This document shows, piece by piece, positions 8,739-59,314 of a DNA stretch of 64,000 nucleotides. The first letter of the stretch is position 1. Every line of letters begins with the position of its first letter. The DNA is from an uncultured Methanosarcinaceae archaeon (GTDB lineage Archaea > Halobacteriota > Methanosarcinia > Methanosarcinales > Methanosarcinaceae). Under the pieces are notes generated by a model, which searched no databases, had not been told where the DNA came from, and saw only the letters and a list, made by a program, of their open reading frames with translations. The position numbers and the translations under genes were made by a program. The stretch lies in assembly GCA_963733675.1 (NCBI GenBank), contig CAVTET010000001.1, positions 128,001-192,000 on the forward strand. Direction: 5' to 3'.

Positions 8739-9485
8739 TCAGTCATACTTTGTGGACTCAATAGCTTCCTCAAGAGAAAATCTGCCTGTGTAAAGAGCAC
8801 TGCCGATCACCACCCCTATTGCTCCAGTTTTCTTCAGAATTTGCAGGTCGTGCAAAGAACCCACTCCCCCAGATGCAATTACAGGGATAGTGACTGATTC
8901 AACAAGTTCCTTTGTAGGACCAGGATCCACTCCTTGCATAAGACCTTCAGTATCTATATTCGTAAAAAGCAAACTTCCTGCACCTAGCTCCTCAAACTTT
9001 TTGCCCATTTCTACAGAAGTTTGCGTGCACTCCTCAGTCCAGCCTTTGATTGAGACTTTTCCGTTCTTAGCATCCAGAGCAACAGTTATGTATACGCTTC
9101 CAAAGGAATTGACAAGCAGTTTTACCAGTTCCGGATTTTGGATGGCAGCAGTTCCAAGAATTACTCTTGAAACTCCTAGTTTAAGGAGAGCAGCTGCATT
9201 TTCAAAATTTCTAATTCCTCCTCCTACTTGAATACAAACTCCTTTTTCCTTACAGACCTCTACTATCTTTTCAATAATTTGAGTATTTTTGCGTTCTCCT
9301 TCTATTGCACCATCGAGATCTACAAGGTGCAGACACTCTGCACCTTTGTTAATCCAGTCCAAGGCAACTGAAAGAGGATTGTCTAGGGATATAATTTCAC
9401 TACCAGGTACTCCCTGCACAAGCTGAACACACTTTCCACCCCTCATATCCACCGCAGGAATCACTACAAAAACCAAGAACACCAC
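8739..9485 (-). CDS. hisA: ProFAR isomerase
   Basis: VIPAVDMRGGKCVQL, HLVDLDGA, QVGGGIR and VIASGG motifs. Confidence 0.97.
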   Translation of the reverse strand: MVFLVFVVIPAVDMRGGKCVQLVQGVPGSEIISLDNPLSVALDWINKGAECLHLVDLDGAIEGERKNTQIIEKIVEVCKEKGVCIQVGGGIRNFENAAALLKLGVSRVILGTAAIQNPELVKLLVNSFGSVYITVALDAKNGKVSIKGWTEECTQTSVEMGKKFEELGAGSLLFTNIDTEGLMQGVDPGPTKELVESVTIPVIASGGVGSLHDLQILKKTGAIGVVIGSALYTGRFSLEEAIESTKYD

Positions 9486-9545
9486 TTCTCCACTAAACTT
9501 ATAAAATAATATTTCAATGTTCCCATGATTGTAGGTCTTTTCCTT

Positions 9546-49107: not shown

Positions 49108-50282
49108 AACGCATCGAAACTGACCTGAATATCTCACCGTTGATGCAGGAAGAGTCCTTATGATGACTTTCAGCTTCCCTGAAAACATTATGGAAATATG
49201 ATATTTGTGCCTTTAGATGTCTGAAAAGAAACAAGATTTTGTTTTCTAACATAGAAGGGGAATCAAAATTTAGCGTTGATTCCTAGCAATTAACAAACAT
49301 CAATAAAAAAACCCAAAAAGCAACAATAAGTCTCATATTTCTCTTAGATATAACTTTAGTTCTTGTTCGTGAATCATTATCAAATCTGAAAAAACGATTA
49401 TCTCCATCTTTTTGGGGGAAATACAAGACATGATTTTGCTTCTGTTTTCAGTAACTCATGGATACTACCCCTAAACGGTAATATCATTTTAAGAACCTCA
49501 TTTTTACTTCATAACAGTTGTGATCAAATATTTAGGTTCTCTATTTATTACGGATCATTTAATAGTGGTAGTTGTACTTGATAGAATACTTCTCCATTGT
49601 AAGAAGATAGGCATAAAGGGAAAATTAAAGGCTTAAAGAGAGAAAGAGACCGGAATAAAAATTGGAGTTCCATATTTCTAATTTTATAGAAATCCGTGAA
49701 AATTGGTGAATATTATATCCAAATGTGTGAATTTTTAAACGGTTAAATTGGGGAAAAATGAACAAGTCCTAACACCCTGCAGGGTCTTTCTGAGTCTCTA
49801 GCTGCAGATAAGGGGTATGCAGATTTTAATGGACCATTTTTTTCCATGACCGTAAAGATCAGATCATTTCCCTTATTAATTTCCTTAACCACTATTCAAA
49901 AAACATTTCCCTAAGAGCGTCTTCAAGAATAATTTGGGAATAAGACGACATTGGTACACCGAGATTTAAATCATAATATAAAAAAAGTGTTCAGGAAAGA
50001 GGATATTATGCTTAACCGATGACGCATGAATTAAAATATTTAATTTTTGACTAACTTTGGAATCGCAGTCTAGCTGCAAATAAGATTTTTTTAGGCACTT
50101 TTTGCCGCAAAATATGGGTTTTAATATTAACAATGCTTATCGTATGTCGTCAGTTCACATATGTGATGATATTTTCGGGGTGGTGGAAGGTTCTGCAATG
50201 AACTGCATATCCATTATACCTAGAGCAGATAGAAATGTGAATTTAAAACTAGTAAGAACACATGAATCTAAAAGGTTAAAGT

Positions 50283-50756
50283 ATGAAGGGAGAGATATTT
50301 GAAAGAACGAAGCATATTGTCCTAGACATTGATGAGCATGCAGTTGAAATAGCCTCTGAAGTTCTTGATGACGAGCTTGCCATTGAAATAGCCTGGGAAG
50401 CTATTAATTTAGTTGAACTGTATATTATTATGCGTATAGTAGAACATATGCTCATGATAGCTGAGTATATGCTTCTGGAAGTTAAAACTAGTCCTATTCA
50501 CCTGATTGAACCAAGACATGGTCAAAATATGGAGTTAATAGTTGATTTCTTTGAAAAAGGAGAATCCCAGCTACGGCAAATATTCAGAGCATATAGCGTT
50601 TTAGAGGCAGAAATCAATGTGCTTAAATCTTTAATGACTGGTTCTATGAATGAGATATTGCAGTATAACAATTTATTCATGGAACCTGGTAGAGCATCAG
50701 CTTATCCTTCGGTTTCGCATTTAATCGAAGCCTTGCCCTACACCTATTGTTGTTGA
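50283..50756 (+). CDS. Hypothetical acidic protein
   Basis: 157-codon ORF in AT-rich DNA with protein-like composition; no clear motif. Confidence 0.5.
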   Translation: MKGEIFERTKHIVLDIDEHAVEIASEVLDDELAIEIAWEAINLVELYIIMRIVEHMLMIAEYMLLEVKTSPIHLIEPRHGQNMELIVDFFEKGESQLRQIFRAYSVLEAEINVLKSLMTGSMNEILQYNNLFMEPGRASAYPSVSHLIEALPYTYCC

Positions 50757-51109
50757 TTGAATTCATCTTCAACATTACTAACTTCATTTTTTTTGTTGTT
50801 ATATAAATTACTATCAACACAATGATTTCAAGGAATAAGACCTATTTTTGGTGCCGAATATTTTCAAGCTGACCTTACCTTTGTTTTCTCTCATTTCCCC
50901 TTTTTTTGATAGATGGTGGCAAAAAGAATTTAATGAATCTTCTTTGTTTATCGAGTTCTTTTACTTGGATTGATGTTCTCACACAAAAAATGACATAAGT
51001 AGTATTTATGCATTTGAACCAGCTCAATGCAGAAAGCATCTGTATTTGAGGTTATTTTTCCCCTCTAAATAGGTTTACGTGTTTGAACACTATACTAGTA
51101 TACTATACG

Positions 51110-51123
51110 GTCACAATTGTGAC
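51110..51123. promoter_or_regulatory. Perfect palindrome GTCACAATTGTGAC (candidate operator 1)
   Basis: 14-bp perfect inverted repeat just upstream of the tRNA-Cys relic; core repeated at 51300. Confidence 0.55.
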
Positions 51124-51132
51124 TAAATTGTT

Positions 51133-51204
51133 ACCAGGGCCGCTGTGAGGCTACGCAATGGACTGCAGATCCATCTAATCAAGGTTCGATTCCAGGATCT
51201 TATT
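51133..51204 (+). pseudogene. Degenerate tRNA-Cys copy
   Basis: 51148-51174 is identical to 51719-51745 (anticodon arm, GCA) and GGTTCGATTCC is kept, but the acceptor stem no longer pairs. Confidence 0.85.
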
Positions 51205-51297
51205 TGAAAGGTTTTCATAGATACTAGAAAATCTTTGAGGTGATATTTGCCTCATAAAGAAGGTTCAAATATAAGTAAAGGTTAATAATAAGTATAG

Positions 51298-51313
51298 ATT
51301 CACAATTGTGAAT
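51298..51313. promoter_or_regulatory. Perfect palindrome ATTCACAATTGTGAAT (candidate operator 2)
   Basis: 16-bp perfect inverted repeat with the same TCACAATTGTGA core. Confidence 0.55.
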
Positions 51314-51551
51314 TAAGTGTTGCAGATTCCTAGTGATTTCACTCGTTAGGTATGTACTTAACTCGCTGGGTAAGGTGATCAACTCAAAGATGTGAAAGCT
51401 CTAGTCGTAGATGAACAGACCCTATAATTATTCTCAACCCCCACTTCTTGCAGAAGTCCACAATATGCCACCATCTTCTCAATGTGGCGATATCCAAAAA
51501 TTAATGCCGCTTTAAAAGGGATTCATTGGGAGAATTGGCAACTAAATTAGA

Positions 51552-51639
51552 GAGGATTTAGATAACTCCCTAAATTTCGTCATATGCTTCTAAAATCAAT
51601 ATAAATTATTTTTGAAAATAGGGATTTATCGAAATCCTC
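51552..51639. repeat. ~90-bp inverted-end element, copy F
   Basis: GAGGATTTAGATAACTCCCTA ... TAGGGATTTATCGAAATCCTC. Confidence 0.75.
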
Positions 51640-51703
51640 TATAAGATTGTGTATATCCGCGAGATATAAGGCACAAAATCTATGGTTCAAAACTAAAACG
51701 GAT

Positions 51704-51775
51704 GCTGAGATGGCGGAAAGGCTACGCAATGGACTGCAGATCCATTTTACTCCGGTTCGATTCCGGGTCTCAGCT
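51704..51775 (+). tRNA. tRNA-Cys(GCA)
   Basis: Acceptor stem GCTGAGA/TCTCAGC, discriminator U; anticodon arm ATGGA-CTGCAGA-TCCAT; T arm TCCGG-TTCGATT-CCGGG. Confidence 0.95.
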
Positions 51776-51788
51776 TAGAGGTAATCTC

Positions 51789-53176
51789 ATGGATCTAAGA
51801 ACACAAAAGACTTTTGAGGCGCTTTTTGCCCTTGAAGATATTCGGGAGGTCCTCAGACAATCACTTCCAAATGTCACAAATCCTGAAGAAGAACATTCCA
51901 TTAAGGAAGGTGTAGACAAAGTCAGAAAGATCCTGGATGAGATAGAGAACGGTACTGGAACTCCACAAGTTAGGAAGATAGCAGATACTATTGATATCCG
52001 ATCCAGAGAAGAAACATGCATCAACATACAGCCAATTCAAGCGGCTGGGAGGCTTACTCCTGAAGCACGAAAAGCGCTTATAGCGTATGGAGATGGCTAT
52101 TCCACCTGTGATGCCTGCCGCAAACCTTTCAGGCTGGACAAAATTAGAACTCCGCCTATCGCACCGTTTCATGAACAACTTGCTAGCTTCCTTAATATGG
52201 ATGTTGCACGCGTAGTGCCAGGTGCAAGGCGTGGTTTCCAGGTAGTGACTTCCACTCTTATCAATAAAGGTGATTCAGTGATAGTCTCATCTCTGGCTCA
52301 CTATACTGAGTTTCTCGCTGTAGAAGAGGCAGAAGGAACAGTAAGAGAAGTACCTGTGAACGAGTACAATGTTGTGACTGCAGATGCAACTGCTGAGAAG
52401 ATTGAGGCGGTAAAGCAGGAAACAGGCAAACTGCCTGTACTGATAATGATTGATCACTTTGATTATCAGTATGCCAATGAACATGATGTAAAAGGCATAG
52501 CAAAAGTTGCACATCAGTATGATATTCCTTTCCTATATAACGGCGCATACACTGTTGGCGTCATGTCAGTGAATGGAAAGAAAATTGGCGCGGATTTTGT
52601 CGTAGGCTCAGGCCACAAAAGCATGGCATCACCTGCACCGTCAGGAGTGCTGGCAACAACCGATGAATGGGCTCCCAAGATATTCCGAACTACGCAGATG
52701 GTTGGTGATGTCACAAACGTAAGTTTGGCATCAAAGAAGTCGAGATGCTTGGATGCACACTAATGGGTTCGACATTGATAGGTATGATGGCTTCTTTCCC
52801 TACTGTCAAGAGTAGAGTACAGAATTGGGAAGAAGAAGTAAAGAAGTCAAACTATCTGATTGATGGTCTACTTGCTGTAGAAGGTGGTAAGGTTCTCTCA
52901 GAATACCCACGCAAACATACCCTGTCAAAAATTGACACAAGTAGAAACTTTGATATCATTGCACAGGGTCATAAACGCAAAGGGTTCTTCCTTTCAGACG
53001 AGCTTTCAAGCAAGGGCATTGTTGGAGAATTTGCAGGAGCTACGCGGGTTTGGAAATTAAACACATACGGGCTTTCCTGGGAGACAGTCCGCTATGTAGT
53101 AGATACATTCCAAGGAATTACTGAGAAATACAAACTTCAAGTAAACAGGGAGAATGATTCCAATGGTAGTAAATAA
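51789..53176 (+). pseudogene. pscS: O-phosphoseryl-tRNA:Cys-tRNA synthase with N-terminal extension; single frameshift near 52715
   Basis: PIQAAGRLT.EA.KAL..YGDGYSTCDAC, GARRGF, AHYT, NGAYTVG and PLP-lysine motif GSGHKS. RKFGIKEVEMLGCT resumes in another frame. Confidence 0.9.
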
Positions 53177-54458
53177 CTATAAACTAGGAACTCTTGCCCT
53201 TCATGCTGGACAGATTCCAGATCCAGCTACAGGAGCACGAGCAGTACCGATATATCAAACTACGTCTTATGTCTTCCGAGACACTGATCATGCAGCTAAT
53301 CTTTTTGCCCTCAACGAGCTTGGTAATATCTACACCCGTATAATGAACCCAACTACTGACGTTTTCGAACAGCGTATAGCTGCTATTGAAGGTGGCACAG
53401 GAGCACTTGGAGTTGCGTCCGGTTCAGCTGCAATAACCTATGCTCTGTTAGCGATTACTAGGCTTGGGGATGAAATTGTCTCTGGGAACAACCTCTACGG
53501 CGGAATCTATGAACTTTTTAATTACACTTTCCCTAAGTTAGGAAGAAAAATTATATTTGTTGATTCAACTAATCTGGAAGCTTATCAACATGCTATTACT
53601 GAAAAAACGCGGGCGATTTATATTGAATCAATAGGTAATCCAAAATTGGATATTCCGGATTTTCAGGCGCTTGCAAATATTGCCCATAGAGCTGAAATCC
53701 CACTTGTTGTAGATAACACGAGTGCTGTCGGGCTTGTTAGGCCTATTGATCATGGAGCAGATATCATTGTGCATTCAGCAACCAAATTTATCGGTGGGCA
53801 TGGGAATTCAATCGGTGGTTCTATAGTCGATTCCGGAAAATTCTCCTGGAACAATGGCAAGTTCCCAGAATTGACAGATCCTGATCCCAGCTATCATGGT
53901 TTGAAATACTGGGATACGTTTTCAGAATTTCCGGGTCTTGGTAATGTAGCATTTATCTTTAAAGTAAGGCTGCAACTTCTTAGGGATACAGGTGCTGCTC
54001 TTTCACCTTTTAATGCTTTTCTATTGCTTCAGGGACTTGAAACACTGCATCTGAGGATACAGCGGCACTCTAAAAACGCCCTCAAGGTAGCAAAATATCT
54101 TTCAAGTCATCCAAAAGTCTCATGGATTAATTATCCAGGTTTACCTGATCATCCAAGTCATGAGCGTGCATCTAGATACCTAATAGGTGGTTATGGTGCA
54201 TTGATAGGTTTTGGGGTGAAGGGCGGTATAGAAGCAGGTAAAACCTTTATAAACAATCTAAAGCTGTTTTCACATGTTGCCAACATAGGAGATTCCAAAA
54301 GTCTTGTCATTCATCCTTCAACTACCACACACCAGCAGCTAACCTCAACTGAGCAGGAGGCAACAGGCGTTACGCCAGATTACATACGCCTTTCCATTGG
54401 TATTGAGGATGTCGAAGATATAATCTCAGATCTGGAACAAGCTCTTGAAAAAGTGTAA
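53163..54458 (+). CDS. O-acetylhomoserine/O-acetylserine sulfhydrylase (MetY type)
   Basis: [38 protein letters not shown] and IRLSIGIE motifs. Confidence 0.96.
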
Positions 54459-54577
54459 CTATGAGTTCTAGTTAAAATAATATGAGAAGATCATTTTATT
54501 TTAGGTGAGCAATGTTTAGTCACTTTATTTTGATGAGATTTACTTCATCAATCTATTTTTCACAAATTTGGACTCTG

Positions 54578-55822
54578 TTACAGCGGTTCCATCATTTTCG
54601 TTGGTATGAATTTATGATCTTGAATACGATTTTTAAGAACCATACATAGCTTTTCTGCCCTGGCTCTATCTGATTGTCTTAGCGAAATAGGGACAGATCC
54701 TTCAGCCAAATTTATGGATCCCAGTCTTGCACGGAATACCCCTCCAGGACATTGTAGGGTACAAGTACCGCAGTTGATACAGAGATGTCTGTTGATGACA
54801 AAACGATCTGAAATTGCTTCTGTAGGACACGTGTGCATTGCAGGACAATCGGGATGGTTCAGACACCTGTCCTTGTCGACCCGGATAACTTTATCTGTGC
54901 CTTCCCAGATATGTCCGTAGTTTACTTTTGTGTGAGCAGTACGCCCGTTTATGTCTGATACAGGCAATGGAACATCACGGTCAGTAATTTTTAATCCCAA
55001 TAGAATCTCTTCATCCAAAACAGGTATTGGAACTGCAAGTGAGGTTAGACATTCAGGACCATGTGAAGTTTTCATTCCGCCCATCATGTCAGGGTCCATG
55101 CCCTTCATATCTGCAAAAGCCGAGACATTCGGTTTATCTGGGCTGGATCTGGTTCCTTTTCCCATAATATATCCCGGAGCTCCATTTAAGAGGACTCTTG
55201 TACCTATACCTATTATCCTATGGGATGGATCGTTCTGTAAAGGGTTTATTTCACCACATCCAGAGACGGACGTTTCTGTGAAAGGACCTGTTAGACCTGT
55301 CACAGAGAATATAGTGCTTATCGTAGTTGCAGTGGGATTTATCAGTGCATGATAATTTTTAAATGCAAGTCTAGTGGTAATTATTCTGGCAAAGTCAATA
55401 TCATCAAGTGTAACCCTATTTTCATAAGTTCTGCCGTGTGCTTCAACAAAAATGTCGATCTCTTTTCCTTTTACAAGATCTCTAAAAAGATGTCCTCCGC
55501 CATATCGGTCATCTGCATGCGATGTCCCGTGAATGACAAGGTCCACAACTCCAAGACGTTCGTTTGGACAGGGGCCAGGCTGAGCAGGCACACCATTTAG
55601 CCAAATGGAATCCGCTTTTTCAAAACTACATTTTTCCGCAACAGGTACCATCATAACTGCCATAGTACCGGACATCACGCCAAATGTTCCTGTCGTAACT
55701 ACATCCACATCTCTAGCAGTTATCTTTTGACCATCACGTACAATGGATTTGAGCTCTGCAGCTGTTAGAATAATTGCTTCTTTGCGGGCAATTTTCTCAT
55801 TTATTTCGTCAATAGTCTTCAT
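54578..55822 (-). CDS. Methanogenesis marker 16 metalloprotein (DUF39/MA1821-like homocysteine synthase family) with C-terminal ferredoxin
   Basis: VDVVTTGTFGVMSGT, PCPNERLG, YGGGHL, SGCGEINPLQND and CINCGTC..CP motifs. Confidence 0.9.
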   Translation of the reverse strand: MKTIDEINEKIARKEAIILTAAELKSIVRDGQKITARDVDVVTTGTFGVMSGTMAVMMVPVAEKCSFEKADSIWLNGVPAQPGPCPNERLGVVDLVIHGTSHADDRYGGGHLFRDLVKGKEIDIFVEAHGRTYENRVTLDDIDFARIITTRLAFKNYHALINPTATTISTIFSVTGLTGPFTETSVSGCGEINPLQNDPSHRIIGIGTRVLLNGAPGYIMGKGTRSSPDKPNVSAFADMKGMDPDMMGGMKTSHGPECLTSLAVPIPVLDEEILLGLKITDRDVPLPVSDINGRTAHTKVNYGHIWEGTDKVIRVDKDRCLNHPDCPAMHTCPTEAISDRFVINRHLCINCGTCTLQCPGGVFRARLGSINLAEGSVPISLRQSDRARAEKLCMVLKNRIQDHKFIPTKMMEPL

Positions 55823-55846
55823 AGTATCCCGATCTATTCAATATTC

Positions 55847-56504
55847 TCATAATATCCTTAAATCTTCAAGCCGGACGTGAGTTCCAAAGGGTTTCTGAAA
55901 TATAGTGTTCACAAGAGCAGTATGTGCCAGATCAATCATACAGTTGCCAGGCAGAAAATATTGGCGAGTTCCAAGGACGGGAGGATTTGTTATGATACTT
56001 GCAACTCCTTCGAAAGCATGGATGTGGTATGCTTGGACATCATGGCAGTCTTCTTTTCTTGCGGCCATTGGACCTACAGTATGACACTCAAGTATACCTG
56101 TTACAGGGTTTGCGCTCAAAACCCTTAAAGCATGATAAAGAGGGCAGCCTGGTCCTGCTGGACGACCAATTACTAGGTTCCTTTTTAATCCCCCACAATT
56201 CGACAAGTTCTGCCCTAAAAGGTACTATAAATTTGCGTGCCGATGGTTCACCGGGGAAAGGAAGAAGGACAAAGTCATATTCTTTCCCAGCCACATATAT
56301 GCCGGAATAAGTGGCATTTCTTACTCGAATCGCGGGATTTTCCTGGATCCCGATATTATCCTGGTCCATTATATTCTCTTTGCTGTAGAATGGGCATAGT
56401 TCTAGCTCTGCTGACCTTTTTCCAAGACGTTCAATAAAATCAAAACATGTATGTGAGCTACAAGCCCCACAATTTTCCCCTGGTGGACTCCATTTATTAA
56501 CCAT
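55847..56504 (-). pseudogene. Fe-S-binding protein, frameshifted near 56180
   Basis: PG.NCGAC...C...CPF and PGEPSARK in one frame; GRPAGPGCP..H and LPG.CM...HT in another. Confidence 0.85.
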
Positions 56505-57212
56505 CAGTCACCTCAGTATATAGGATCTGGCATATCCAGTGACCTGATGACTCCAAAGTGATTTTTCCATCCGATCTCTTTTACCTATAAATCTCGTGCA
56601 TACGCCGAGTGGGGGTGAACCTCTGAGCACTATAGGTTCTGACCCCATATCCGGCTGGTTGGTAATCCGTCTCATCAGATATCTTAACCCGGTTCCCTAA
56701 ATTGCATTTGTCTCTACAATGTCAATATCAATATCTGGGACAACTTTTTTGATACCTCCCCTGAATACTTCTTTTTCCGCTTGTGACACAAGGTCGGTTT
56801 TGGTAACAACTGCGACATCTGCAAGAGCAAGCAAAGGTGCCATTTTGAGTGGTGAATTTGTTCCTGATATCGCGCTGATAACTGCAATTCCAAGAGATTG
56901 CGTTGTATAAGGGGTACACCTTAGACAGAGTCCTGCACTTTCGATTATCAGAAGATTTCTGGATAGGCTTTTGGCCCAGTTTAATGCGTCATCAAGTACC
57001 AGAATTCCCATGTGATCAGGACAAACATCTCCGGAATATACCTTTTTAACAGGAATATAAAATTCTTCTGCAAGTTCCTGATCTTCAGTTGCATGTACAA
57101 CATCAATTTTCAGAAAGGAGGGAAGTGTATCTTCAGGAAGATTTTTTATAATCTGGCGAATCACAGCAGTTTTTTCCCCACTTGGAGGACCTGCAATTAT
57201 GAGAAGCTTCAT
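56504..57212 (-). pseudogene. CobW/HypB/UreG-type GTPase with internal TAG (56697), a frameshift and a further stop
   Basis: GPPSGEKT (altered P-loop), CPDH, ESAGLCLRC and TKTD. Homologous sequence continues past the TAG: GTGLRYL..LRGSPPLGVCT..EIGWKNHFGVIR. Confidence 0.85.
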
Positions 57213-58036
57213 TTAGAAGCCATACTCTGTACAACTGCAATCGTCAAAGCTTCCGAAGGACCAGAAGAGAAAACAGTTCCCAGCCTTATTTTCTCTCTTA
57301 TTTGATTGAGTTTTGTTTCAATTAATGTAAGATCTTCTATAATATCTTGCTCCTGTCCGATAGGTTCTATCACAGAGTGAACTCCTCCATTTCTCATCAC
57401 TATGCGCCTATCTGCTGTAAGAGCGAGATATGGATCGTGTGTTACAAGAACTACAGCCTTATTTCCTCCCTGAATAGCCTGCATAACACGGTTTTTGAAG
57501 ATGCCTGCATTTTCGATCTCATCGAGAAGAAGTATTGGAGTATCACCGATTATAAGTGCATCTGCGATCATAAGAGACCTAGTTTGGCCTCCGGATAAAC
57601 CGCTCATTCGACTCTTAAGACTGATTACTTCGCCCGTGAATGTATTTGCAAGATTTATTGTCTCACCAAGCAAATCTTCCTTACCAGGTCTCCGCGCTCT
57701 TATATGCATTAATAGGAATGCTTCGACTGTGAGGTCTGCCAAACAACGTGTGTTTTGGGTTATCATGGCAATCGGTTTGAAAGCAGGCTCCCGTATAAAG
57801 GACTCTGGAGGCACTTCCCCATTGATAAAAATCAATCTGCCCGTTACTGTATCTCCCTGTGCAAGGGTTTCAATATCATTAATAAAGGCTGATTTTCCTG
57901 AGCCTGTAGGACCCACTATTGATAGGGTATCCCCTGGTCTTATCTCTATACTGTCAAATCCTTCCTGCTCTCTAAACCTGTTTTTTCCAGATTGAATTGT
58001 AAGAGTGAATTGCTGTGTCCCAAATTGTTGTGTCAT
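57209..58036 (-). CDS. Stand-alone ABC-type ATPase
   Basis: GPTGSGKS, LSGGQ, LLLDE and VTHD motifs; no adjacent permease. Confidence 0.92.
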   Translation of the reverse strand: MTQQFGTQQFTLTIQSGKNRFREQEGFDSIEIRPGDTLSIVGPTGSGKSAFINDIETLAQGDTVTGRLIFINGEVPPESFIREPAFKPIAMITQNTRCLADLTVEAFLLMHIRARRPGKEDLLGETINLANTFTGEVISLKSRMSGLSGGQTRSLMIADALIIGDTPILLLDEIENAGIFKNRVMQAIQGGNKAVVLVTHDPYLALTADRRIVMRNGGVHSVIEPIGQEQDIIEDLTLIETKLNQIREKIRLGTVFSSGPSEALTIAVVQSMASK

Positions 58037-58338
58037 GTACTCAATTATCTATATCTGGATTTTATAAAGATTTCCTCAAATACTCAAAAATTAACCCTTA
58101 AAGGATATGATATCAAAAAAATTATCCTTTTTTTATTAAAATTTAATGGAAAATGGGAAAACGACAAATTAAAAATTGTCATTTTCTTCAATAATTGCCT
58201 GAAAGATTATCATTGCAACCGTAGATTCCGAAAAAAGGTTAACTGTTTAAAGACCAATCTGAGATTAATCACATGGAATCGAATGAATCAAATATCCCTA
58301 TGGGGCGTCAGGTCGCAGCCAGTGCAGAGCAAGCACAT

Positions 58339-59193
58339 GGTTCCGTTGCAAAAACTTCAACAAAATATGTAAATCTATAAGTGATTAATAAAAATCAAAA
58401 CATTCAAGGAAAATGTACTAACATTATAAAACTATACCAAATAATTGATTAATGTATTTGACTTCATTAAGAACAGAGTAATTTAAATCGATTACTTGTC
58501 CTTTTTTGATCATATTTATAGCTTCAATTCCTTTTAAAGTCTTATTAGCAGATCGAAAAGACTGAAATCCTAACATTGGATTAACGATTCTCTTTATAGA
58601 TCTGTGATCTTGTTCTATAATGTTATTCAAATACTTGATTTGTCGAATGCCTACGTTTTTAGGTAGTATTTTATCAATTTTTAGTTTATCTATAGCAGGT
58701 GGATAAGCTGAATTCTTATCAACGGTTATTAATCTTGGAATTTGATTATGATTAGAACTTAAAGCTTTCTTAAAGAATCTCTTTGCTGCTTTTCTATCTC
58801 GTTTTGAACTTAACATGAAATCAATTGTATCTCCATTTGAGTCAACTGCTCGGTAAAAATATTTCCATTTACCTTTTACTTTGATATAGGTTTCGTCAAC
58901 TCTCCATGAATAGTTTGTTAGTCTTAAATGTCTTCTTATCTTCTTTTCGATTTCAGGAGAATATTGATGTACCCATCTCATTATAGTACTGTGATCAACT
59001 TGAATTCCCCTTTCTATCATCATTTCCTTTAAATTTCTATAACTTAATGCATATTTTAAGTACCATCTTACATTCAATAAGATAATTTCCCCTTCATAAT
59101 GCTTCCATTTAAAGGAATTAGATAGCATGTTACTATCTTTGGTTTTCTTTTTATTCTATTGTATCATTAGAAAGGATTTTTTGCAACGGAACC
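58339..59193 (-). mobile_element. IS6-family insertion sequence (855 bp)
   Basis: Perfect terminal inverted repeats GGTTCCGTTGCAAAAA / TTTTTGCAACGGAACC. Confidence 0.95.
58424..59128 (-). CDS. IS6-family transposase (intact ORF)
   Basis: FKWKHY..EII, WRVDETYIKVKG, VDK..AY and YLNNIIEQDHR motifs. Confidence 0.97.
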   Translation of the reverse strand: MLSNSFKWKHYEGEIILLNVRWYLKYALSYRNLKEMMIERGIQVDHSTIMRWVHQYSPEIEKKIRRHLRLTNYSWRVDETYIKVKGKWKYFYRAVDSNGDTIDFMLSSKRDRKAAKRFFKKALSSNHNQIPRLITVDKNSAYPPAIDKLKIDKILPKNVGIRQIKYLNNIIEQDHRSIKRIVNPMLGFQSFRSANKTLKGIEAINMIKKGQVIDLNYSVLNEVKYINQLFGIVL

Positions 59194-59314
59194 ATCTAAG
59201 CTAATTAAAATCTTAGGTCTCTTATTTGATCTTTATGCAAGCTAGGATATTAAGAGTTCAAATATAGTTTACCTAAACTTAAATATCTTAACTGTAATCT
59301 CCTCAAGGATTGGC

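Follow-up and report, generated by a model that had tools for sequence, protein, structure and literature searches.

How sulfur is delivered to cysteine, homocysteine and coenzyme M (CoM) in methanogens is only partly known, and two described gene linkages bear on it. Mukai et al. 2017 (mBio, PMC5424206) described the linkage of tRNA-Cys genes with SepCysS and sulfur-metabolism genes in the clade VII SepCysS loci, and reported that some SepCysS proteins are fused to a SepCysE-like N-domain ('SepCysSN') and that some archaea carry two SepCysS copies. Chadwick et al. 2025 (PLoS Genet, PMC12068725) identified methanogenesis marker 16 (MMP16) as ComF, the primary CoM synthase of M. acetivorans, with activity and phenotype known for the M. 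jannaschii and M. acetivorans homologues. A marker 16 deletion makes M. acetivorans a CoM auxotroph when sulfide is absent. The legend of their Fig. 2B gives genes for an ATPase, a 'Ni2+-binding GTPase' and a COG2000 iron-sulfur (Fe-S) protein as co-localised with CoM biosynthesis genes and of unknown role, so this trio is a recognised, unexplained member of CoM clusters. Both the tRNA-SepCysS and the trio-CoM linkage are thus already published; among open-access papers in PMC and in bioRxiv we found none that names SepCysS together with MMP16. Here we describe a locus where the two linkages meet, in an uncultured Methanosarcina-like metagenome-assembled genome (MAG; G000, 3.92 Mb in 15 contigs, 36% GC, 92% complete). 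The window, that is the whole stretch of 64,000 nucleotides analysed, corresponds to G000:C1:128001-192000, and its central features are:

51704..51775, plus strand: intact tRNA-Cys of the island type, anticodon GCA, G37, U73 (ARAGORN; Rfam tRNA, 56.7 bits)
51789..53176, plus strand: pscS pseudogene for an N-extended SepCysS, with a -1 frameshift at 52714/5 (NF006810 in two frames)
53154..54458, plus strand: metY, putative O-acetylhomoserine sulfhydrylase, intact, 434 aa, overlapping the end of pscS
54578..55822, minus strand: methanogenesis marker 16, predicted ComF (COG1900 plus ferredoxin domain), intact (TIGR03287, PF01837)
55847..56504, minus strand: pseudogene of a COG2000-type Fe-S protein, with a 2-nt deletion at ~56181 (PF04060 on the N-terminal piece)
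56560..57212, minus strand: G3E GTPase pseudogene, frame to the TAG stop 56697-57212 (PF02492, 39.6 bits, cut-off 20.7)
57209..58036, minus strand: soluble ATP-binding cassette (ABC)-type ATPase, 275 aa, open, with no permease gene (PF00005, 50.4 bits)

Our analysis suggests that two transferable sulfur-insertion modules are joined here, that the whole set was duplicated and cut apart, that the copies then decayed in a complementary manner, and that native genes were displaced, an account that we consider probable as a whole. Its new elements are the recurrent pairing of both modules, a Methanomicrobiales-like cassette of trio and ComF in Methanosarcina, the apparent displacement of native genes and the complementary decay of the copies. 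The first-pass annotation of this DNA had proposed tRNA-Cys, pscS and a MetY-type gene on the plus strand, converging with the ATPase, GTPase, Fe-S protein and marker 16 genes on the minus strand. These identities agree with ARAGORN, Rfam and the profile matches; SepCysS, the Fe-S gene and the GTPase are broken. Its description of the region as accessory is borne out, as the Fe-S gene occurs in none of the nine same-genus genomes within our order sample, and N-extended SepCysS is found in only some Methanosarcinaceae.

The plus-strand half resembles the clade VII loci of Mukai et al. in having tRNA-Cys directly upstream of an N-extended SepCysS (13 nt separate the end of the tRNA from the start of pscS) and MetY directly downstream. 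The window SepCysS matches NF006810 in two different frames (406.9 bits over positions 5-262 and 188.6 bits over 265-396) and gives no full-length, single-frame match over the curated cut-off; it is a family member by descent, now broken, and its paralogue on contig C4 scores 404.4 bits against TIGR02539, over the cut-off. About 60-70 extra residues precede the NF006810 match. A phmmer search of PDB with the first 80 residues of the C4 protein found no SepCysE chain at E up to 10, and a short helical domain may escape such a sequence search. MetY is a member of TIGR01326 (655.5 bits, cut-off 495.1) and PF01053 (444.7 bits), and scores slightly under the cut-off of the NF006096 equivalog (690.1 against 726). 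Among 46 Methanosarcinaceae genomes SepCysS falls into two types: a core type of ~390-405 aa, present in nearly all, and an N-extended type of ~455-462 aa in a patchy subset, which is like the second SepCysS type beside the core type in the published loci. tRNA-Cys lies directly upstream of pscS in 8 of 11 N-extended loci in other genomes (three genes in tandem in G015), MetY directly downstream in 9 of the 11, and neither is a neighbour of pscS in any of 18 core-type loci. The tRNA-Cys dedicated to SepCysS that had been proposed here is therefore a conserved arrangement, and the relatives show tandem arrays of 2-4 tRNA-Cys genes; the supplements of Mukai et al. may show the same. Unlike the published loci, as far as the parts of that paper on which we draw describe them, the SepCysS in the window is frameshifted and the N-extended type (the C4 copy) is apparently the sole SepCysS of the genome. 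We liken the loci by gene order and not by phylogeny.

The lesions are small. Compared with its C4 paralogue, pscS is one A short at 52714/5. In the GTPase a TAG stop follows codon 171, 2 nt are deleted at ~56582, and Walker A reads GPPSGEKT where the paralogue has GPPSGGKT. All three indels of the region lie within or beside short A runs, which favours the view that they are sequencing errors and that all window genes are intact, and they were for this reason checked against public Logan contigs from the runs X1 and X4, which belong to two studies, and from X9 and X15 (an RNA library). Contigs of X1, possibly the source sample of the assembly, cover 51000-56507 with 0 gaps and 0 mismatches, and those of X4, from the other study, cover 52555-53104, 55920-56302 and 56553-57126, and so all three sites, with 0 gaps. 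The extra A in pscS is present in X9 and X15, which represent related strains, and X9 also has extra bases at the Fe-S and GTPase sites. Homopolymer errors are thus ruled out as the source of the frameshifts by X1 and X4, while X9 and X15 show that the check can tell the two states apart, and the lesions are real and strain-specific. Given in addition the TAG stop and the Walker A substitution in the GTPase, a set of intact window genes hidden by sequencing errors is very improbable.

A blastn search of the region against its own genome revealed a second copy of each of these genes, dispersed over two other contigs. Window positions 51702-53179 match C4:736247-734770 at 84% identity, the 3' 743 nt of metY match C12:113556-114289 at 89%, and 54560-58271 match C12:130384-126679 at 90%; the partial metY and the second operon copy on C12 lie 12 kb apart. 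C4 encodes an intact SepCysS of 462 aa with the same N-extension, behind a decayed tRNA-Cys. On C12 the frames of the ABC ATPase (275 aa), the GTPase (234 aa) and the Fe-S protein (241 aa, C12:128375-129100) are open, and marker 16 is broken by two 1-nt indels and a TAG. The tRNA-Cys, metY, comF and the ABC ATPase are therefore intact in the window, SepCysS on C4, and the GTPase, Fe-S protein and ABC ATPase on C12, so that every gene has at least one open copy and the ABC ATPase alone has two. With the intact copies spread in this way, a working system would have to act in trans. In this decaying pair no gene, not even one of the three whose function is unknown, has lost its last intact copy, which argues for selection on these genes. 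The ratio of nonsynonymous to synonymous substitution rates (dN/dS) between copies is 0.12-0.23 in six of six pairs tested (0.20 for the ABC ATPase, whose copies are 92% identical), which indicates that the copies diverged under selection as working genes and that the lesions are late.

In a tree of operon DNA the window and C12 copies fall into a four-row clade (Shimodaira-Hasegawa-like approximate likelihood ratio test, SH-aLRT, 100) whose remaining two rows come from a single other Methanosarcinaceae MAG, and an independent acquisition of the two copies is not supported. That MAG (L135, L136) has two near-identical operon copies in which the tblastn matches to the ABC and Fe-S genes come in pieces, which suggests a similar duplication and decay in a sister lineage. 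The premature stops are TAG in both operon copies of G000 (window 56697-56699 and C12 marker 16). TAG is partly readable through in pyrrolysine-decoding Methanosarcina, and such rescue is unlikely here because of the accompanying frameshifts. MetX (homoserine O-acetyltransferase) is intact at C4:288572-289606; a second, heavily decayed copy (G000:C12:142630-143558) shares its contig with the partial metY and the second operon copy.

The pairing of the two halves recurs elsewhere. We surveyed the best 80 of 309 relatives of the Fe-S protein in species-representative genomes, which comprise 12 Methanosarcina island-type loci, 30 other-archaeal loci and 38 bacteria-labelled loci (L-numbered below). 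Seven of the 12 Methanosarcina loci offer at least 6 kb of upstream sequence, and in three of these (L130, L133, L205) pscS lies 1-5 kb away: pscS, or pscS and metY, with 2-4 tRNA-Cys genes, and a radical-SAM gene upstream of the ABC gene are divergently oriented. In the Methanoregula MAG L147 the order is trio-cs-comDE (cs, cysteate synthase), followed by two tRNA-Cys genes, pscS (71% identical), metY (74%) and a MetX-CBS gene, and in M. hadiensis, which like strain Z-7115 is a cultured Methanosarcina with the island, tRNA-Cys genes flank the operon. The first-pass annotation had let its island stand or fall with the co-occurrence of the halves in other genomes, and in L130, L133, L205 and L147 they do co-occur. 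It had also described the island as bounded by an insertion sequence (IS) of the IS6 family:

58338..59194, minus strand: IS6-family insertion sequence, 857 bp (a member of NF033587, 278.8 bits, cut-off 125)

This element lies on one side of the locus only, at the place held by the radical-SAM gene in other Methanosarcina islands, and it is no island marker, because more than 200 full or partial copies (80-100% identity) are scattered over nearly all contigs of G000, an unusually IS-laden methanogen genome. Such abundance favours the view that the adjacency of the halves is an accident of IS6-driven scrambling with no functional meaning. In the same direction point the convergent orientation of the halves here and their divergent orientation in L130, L133 and L205, the dispersal of gene copies over C4 and C12, and the flanks: the right flank (59.3-64 kb) is syntenic in four of four same-genus genomes, and the left flank (46.7-49.1 kb) has its counterpart elsewhere on the chromosome in all four, which places the locus at a rearrangement junction. 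An accident would not, however, account easily for a linkage that recurs in varied arrangements in three other Methanosarcina genomes and a Methanoregula MAG, or for the location of the partial metY and the second operon copy on the same contig, and we regard it as somewhat unlikely. The two halves may thus be said to form one island in part.

A closer union of the halves had been proposed from the sequence of the locus, namely a single integrated island in which SepCysS and marker 16 both receive sulfur or a metal cluster from the trio, and in which the island's own tRNA is the carrier for extra cysteine synthesis. The short distances in L130, L133 and L205, the contiguity in Methanoregula L147, the tRNA-Cys arrays that accompany the island and the insertion of reduced sulfur by SepCysS, MetY and ComF alike are in its favour. 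SepCysS is near the trio, however, in only 4 of the 80 loci, and the trio occurs in 38 bacteria-labelled loci without SepCysS. In six Methanosarcinaceae genomes with native-type CoM clusters the N-extended pscS module and marker 16 share a contig but are 0.67 Mb or more apart, and the genes of the present locus are the sole apparent copies and not extras. Across the 80 loci the trio tracks genes for CoM and sulfonates, in some bacteria MetY or ComA, rather than SepCysS, so that we think the integrated island improbable and prefer two modules that have been joined.

Marker 16, which the first-pass annotation had taken for an MA1821-type homocysteine enzyme, is by its sequence and by the published work on its homologues ComF, a predicted CoM synthase and not a homocysteine enzyme (PMC12068725). 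It is a member of TIGR03287 (505.3 bits, cut-off 363.95), matches PF01837 (336.3 bits), has a Fer4 match at residues 342-362, and carries all 47 invariant columns of a 38-sequence alignment, by construction, being its first row. The native Methanosarcina CoM cluster, cs-comDE-MMP16 (MA3297-MA3299; PMC12068725), likewise has ComF (TIGR03287) as the final enzyme that it encodes. In G063 and G090 native marker 16 lies beside cs-comDE, as in M. acetivorans. Unlike that cluster, the window gene is not beside cs-comDE and has the trio upstream, and its product is 46-48% identical to the native copies of the nine same-genus genomes, all of which have marker 16. Its best non-self matches in the order sample are in G053 (52%) and G013 (53%), and Methanolinea-type copies of the wider survey (L150, L151) are 56% identical. 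In a protein tree the window copy and eight other Methanosarcina 'island' copies form a group (SH-aLRT 100) nested in a 21-row Methanomicrobiales/Methanomassiliicoccales clade (95), and native Methanosarcinaceae copies form a separate clade of 25 rows (99). In the sampled members of the 21-row clade (L150-L202) marker 16 follows the trio co-directionally. The complete same-genus genome G063 holds a relic of a 130-aa C-terminal part of an island-type marker 16 (76% aa identity; L096 = G063:C1:1497000-1515000, about 9085-9500) and also keeps its native cs-comDE-marker 16 locus; the relic indicates that the cassette was gained and later lost there.

These observations suggest that trio and ComF form a cassette that is passed as a whole from one methanogen order to another and is able to take the place of a native ComF that has no trio. 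In several Methanosarcina and one Methanoregula the tRNA-Cys/SepCysS/MetY module accompanies it. In G000 the matches to TIGR03287 are the two island copies only, and the window copy is the sole intact one found. The cs-comDE genes of G000 (C1:725447-727985) have no adjoining marker 16, and searches of the 92%-complete assembly gave no remnant of a native one. Neither a core-type SepCysS nor a remnant of it was found in the same assembly, and the flanks of the relatives' core SepCysS map to assembled but rearranged DNA on C15. SepRS is present, and CysRS gave no G000 match over the cut-off. As neither was found in the assembly, the acquired genes appear to have displaced the native ComF and the core SepCysS, and the island genes look like the only working ComF (in the window) and SepCysS (on C4) of the genome; the earlier view of the SepCysS as an extra copy is accordingly not upheld.

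The trio of the window is that of Chadwick et al. in its three genes, their order and the adjoining marker 16 (ComF). The ABC ATPase, whose translation shows Walker A, the LSGGQ signature, Walker B and the H-loop, overlaps the start of the GTPase by 4 nt; this tight coupling, the gene order and the lack of a permease are those of the CoM-cluster trio, and marker 16 lies directly downstream, with cs, comDE and comA not adjacent. Unlike the CoM clusters in the parts of that paper on which we draw, the window operon lacks cs, comDE and comABC, which sit 545 kb off on the same contig, and it is a foreign-type operon, duplicated and half decayed, in a genus with a trio-less native CoM cluster. The GTPase shares the PF02492 domain with HypB and UreG, and its best sequence matches in PDB are UreG (E 5e-5). 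It scores well under the cut-offs of both families, however (TIGR00073 HypB, 46.0 against 121.2; TIGR00101 UreG, 19.6 against 204.2), so that the profiles place it as a G3E superfamily member only. Features that set it apart from HypB and UreG are an additional Cys-containing tail at the C-terminus and the soluble ABC ATPase that accompanies it in every case. A Cys-Pro-x-His stretch in it resembles the Cys-Pro-His motif of UreG. The Fe-S protein has an N-terminal four-Cys motif (PF04060) like that of the corrinoid/iron-sulfur protein large subunit (PDB 4djd_C, E 2.8e-7) and RnfB (E 1e-3); unlike these, it has a beta-rich C-terminal domain of ~150 aa with invariant Cys143, His147, Cys211 and His217. 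A model of the protein (mean predicted local distance difference test score, pLDDT, 78.9) gave no usable match with Foldseek against PDB (best E 0.09) or with VIA-align wide (best Z 4.0, phage baseplate domains). A complex prediction for marker 16 and the Fe-S protein, run without controls, gave 0.01 and 0.00 against a mark of 0.32 and weighs neither way.

Across the survey the trio is kept together: the ABC gene is present in 77 and the GTPase in 79 of the 80 Fe-S loci, in the order ABC-GTPase-Fe-S wherever the flanks allow. In the Methanosarcinaceae genera g5 and g6 (G093, G079 and G030 annotated) the order is cs-ABC-GTPase-FeS-comD-comE, with marker 16 convergent, and marker 16 lies within 3.5 kb of the trio in 10 of 11 same-family loci. 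G013 has ABC-GTPase-FeS-marker 16-comA-comB-comC-comDE and G044 trio-cs-comDE. Of the 30 other-archaeal loci, 27 have cs, 26 comDE and 15 marker 16; of the 38 bacteria-labelled loci, 9 have comA, 6 MetY and 1 marker 16 (L175, probably misbinned). Clustering of the open reading frames (ORFs) around 30 bacterial loci gave no conserved fourth gene, the top one being MetY (6 of 30), and the Pfam families of sampled neighbours are heterogeneous.

The prevalence of cs over marker 16 in the other-archaeal loci raises the alternative that sulfonate synthesis is what the trio serves, at the first step, where cysteate synthase or ComA uses sulfite; it might, for example, supply or handle sulfite, and its adjacency to marker 16 here would be secondary. 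All 13 Methanoregula loci (L137-L148, L193) have trio-cs and no marker 16 in the fetched flanks, and the ComA genes near 9 of the 38 bacteria-labelled trios point the same way. In the 12 Methanosarcina island loci, on the other hand, cs or comA is beside the trio in none and marker 16 in eight, marker 16 of the island clade is always co-directional with the trio, and the same-genus genomes sampled have cs-comDE without a trio. By our own reasoning, an ATPase, a GTPase and a small Fe-S protein are also unlike a six-electron sulfide oxidase, and we consider a role in the sulfite step unlikely. A more sweeping possibility is that of a portable reduced-sulfur kit, in which the trio would be the shared donor of activated sulfur or low-potential electrons for cysteine, homocysteine and CoM at scarce sulfide, and the kit would displace native ComF and SepCysS. 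If this were true, the complementary decay would show, as a natural complementation experiment, that none of the seven parts is dispensable; we regard the idea as a long shot.

Under the account of two joined modules, SepRS, encoded elsewhere, would load phosphoserine on tRNA-Cys, SepCysS would convert it to Cys-tRNA, MetY would make homocysteine from O-acetylhomoserine and sulfide, and ComF would turn sulfoacetaldehyde into CoM, steps assigned by homology and published work. The operon-encoded tRNA-Cys may raise the supply of carrier, and the broken window genes may be complemented in trans from C4 and C12. A trio operon of the Methanomicrobiales kind would have been taken up by a subset of Methanosarcina, and the trio could act as a helper driven by nucleoside triphosphates, matured or driven by the GTPase and ATPase, that provides the enzymes of C-S bond formation with a metal centre, low-potential electrons or sulfur.

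Several points weigh against this account. The helper role of the trio is wholly inferred and speculative; the bacterial trio has no COG1900 gene within 9 kb apart from L175 (1 of 38), which looks misbinned; and the same-genus genomes sampled have cs-comDE-marker 16 without a trio. An approximately unbiased (AU) test does not reject a single Methanosarcinaceae marker 16 clade (p 0.076). For the horizontal acquisition claimed in the first-pass annotation, to which the grouping of marker 16 with Methanomicrobiales-type copies lends support, the case is therefore one of support values, gene order and patchy distribution, and it is suggestive, not decisive. The four-row clade of operon copies is a polytomy, and the tree does not settle a sister relation of the window and C12 copies. 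As the assembly is 92% complete, the native ComF, the core SepCysS and CysRS may be encoded in DNA that it misses. For the C12 and C4 copies the lesions are those seen in the assembly, and the RNA-library contigs of X15, which cover parts of pscS, metY, marker 16 and GTPase/ABC at 93-96% likeness, are no proof of transcription.

Minor features upstream of the intact tRNA-Cys are:

50222..50756, plus strand: ORF of 157 aa that travels with the pscS module
about 51148..51216, plus strand: degenerate tRNA-Cys relic, read as a remnant of a tandem tRNA-Cys array
51543..51650, strand not assigned: hairpin repeat of ~100 nt, like a miniature inverted-repeat transposable element (MITE), between the relic and the intact tRNA-Cys

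Positions 50222-50621 match G015:C95:362-757, just 5' of the tRNA-Cys array and pscS of G015, and searches of the profile library found no family for the 157-aa product. The island had been started at 51110; what lies there is not the intact tRNA-Cys but the relic, which is called by neither ARAGORN nor Rfam and is ~83-86% identical to intact tRNA-Cys genes on C1 and C3. We read it as an array remnant because relatives have 2-4 tandem tRNA-Cys genes at the same place. The MITE-like repeat has dozens of genome-wide copies (72-83% identity, blastn), is not in the paralogous upstream region on C4, and gives a spurious weak miRNA match only in Rfam.

Three trio-ComF operons of Methanosarcina or Methanomassiliicoccales type (L129, L175, L149) are labelled Nitrospirae bacterium, Dialister hominis and Nanohalarchaeota; these contigs are probably misbinned, and L129 marker 16 is 87% identical to the window copy. 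The closest named relatives of the window operon are Methanosarcina spp. In 7 of the 12 Methanosarcina island loci (L128-L133, L205) the gene immediately upstream of the ABC ATPase is the radical-SAM gene (~330-350 aa), and radical-SAM genes also precede the trio in L049 (G013) and L061 (G044), so it may be a fourth accessory gene; its nearest G000 homologue (C1:532272-533249) is only 53% identical.

No tRNA-Thr-ED gene was seen at the locus. Of its 72 positions, the window tRNA-Cys shares 64-67 with island tRNAs from other genera and 59 with the C4:418162 tRNA-Cys of its own genome. A third island-type tRNA-Cys, at G000:C3:561988-562059, agrees with the window gene at 65 of 72 positions; its flanks resemble window 50099-50166 and the first nucleotides past the window tRNA, no pscS follows, and it is probably another remnant of the module. 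Some island tRNA-Cys copies in L099 (G015), L205 and L133 have A37 instead of G37 after the GCA anticodon. As G37 is a reported identity element for SepRS in methanogens, charging of the A37 copies may differ.

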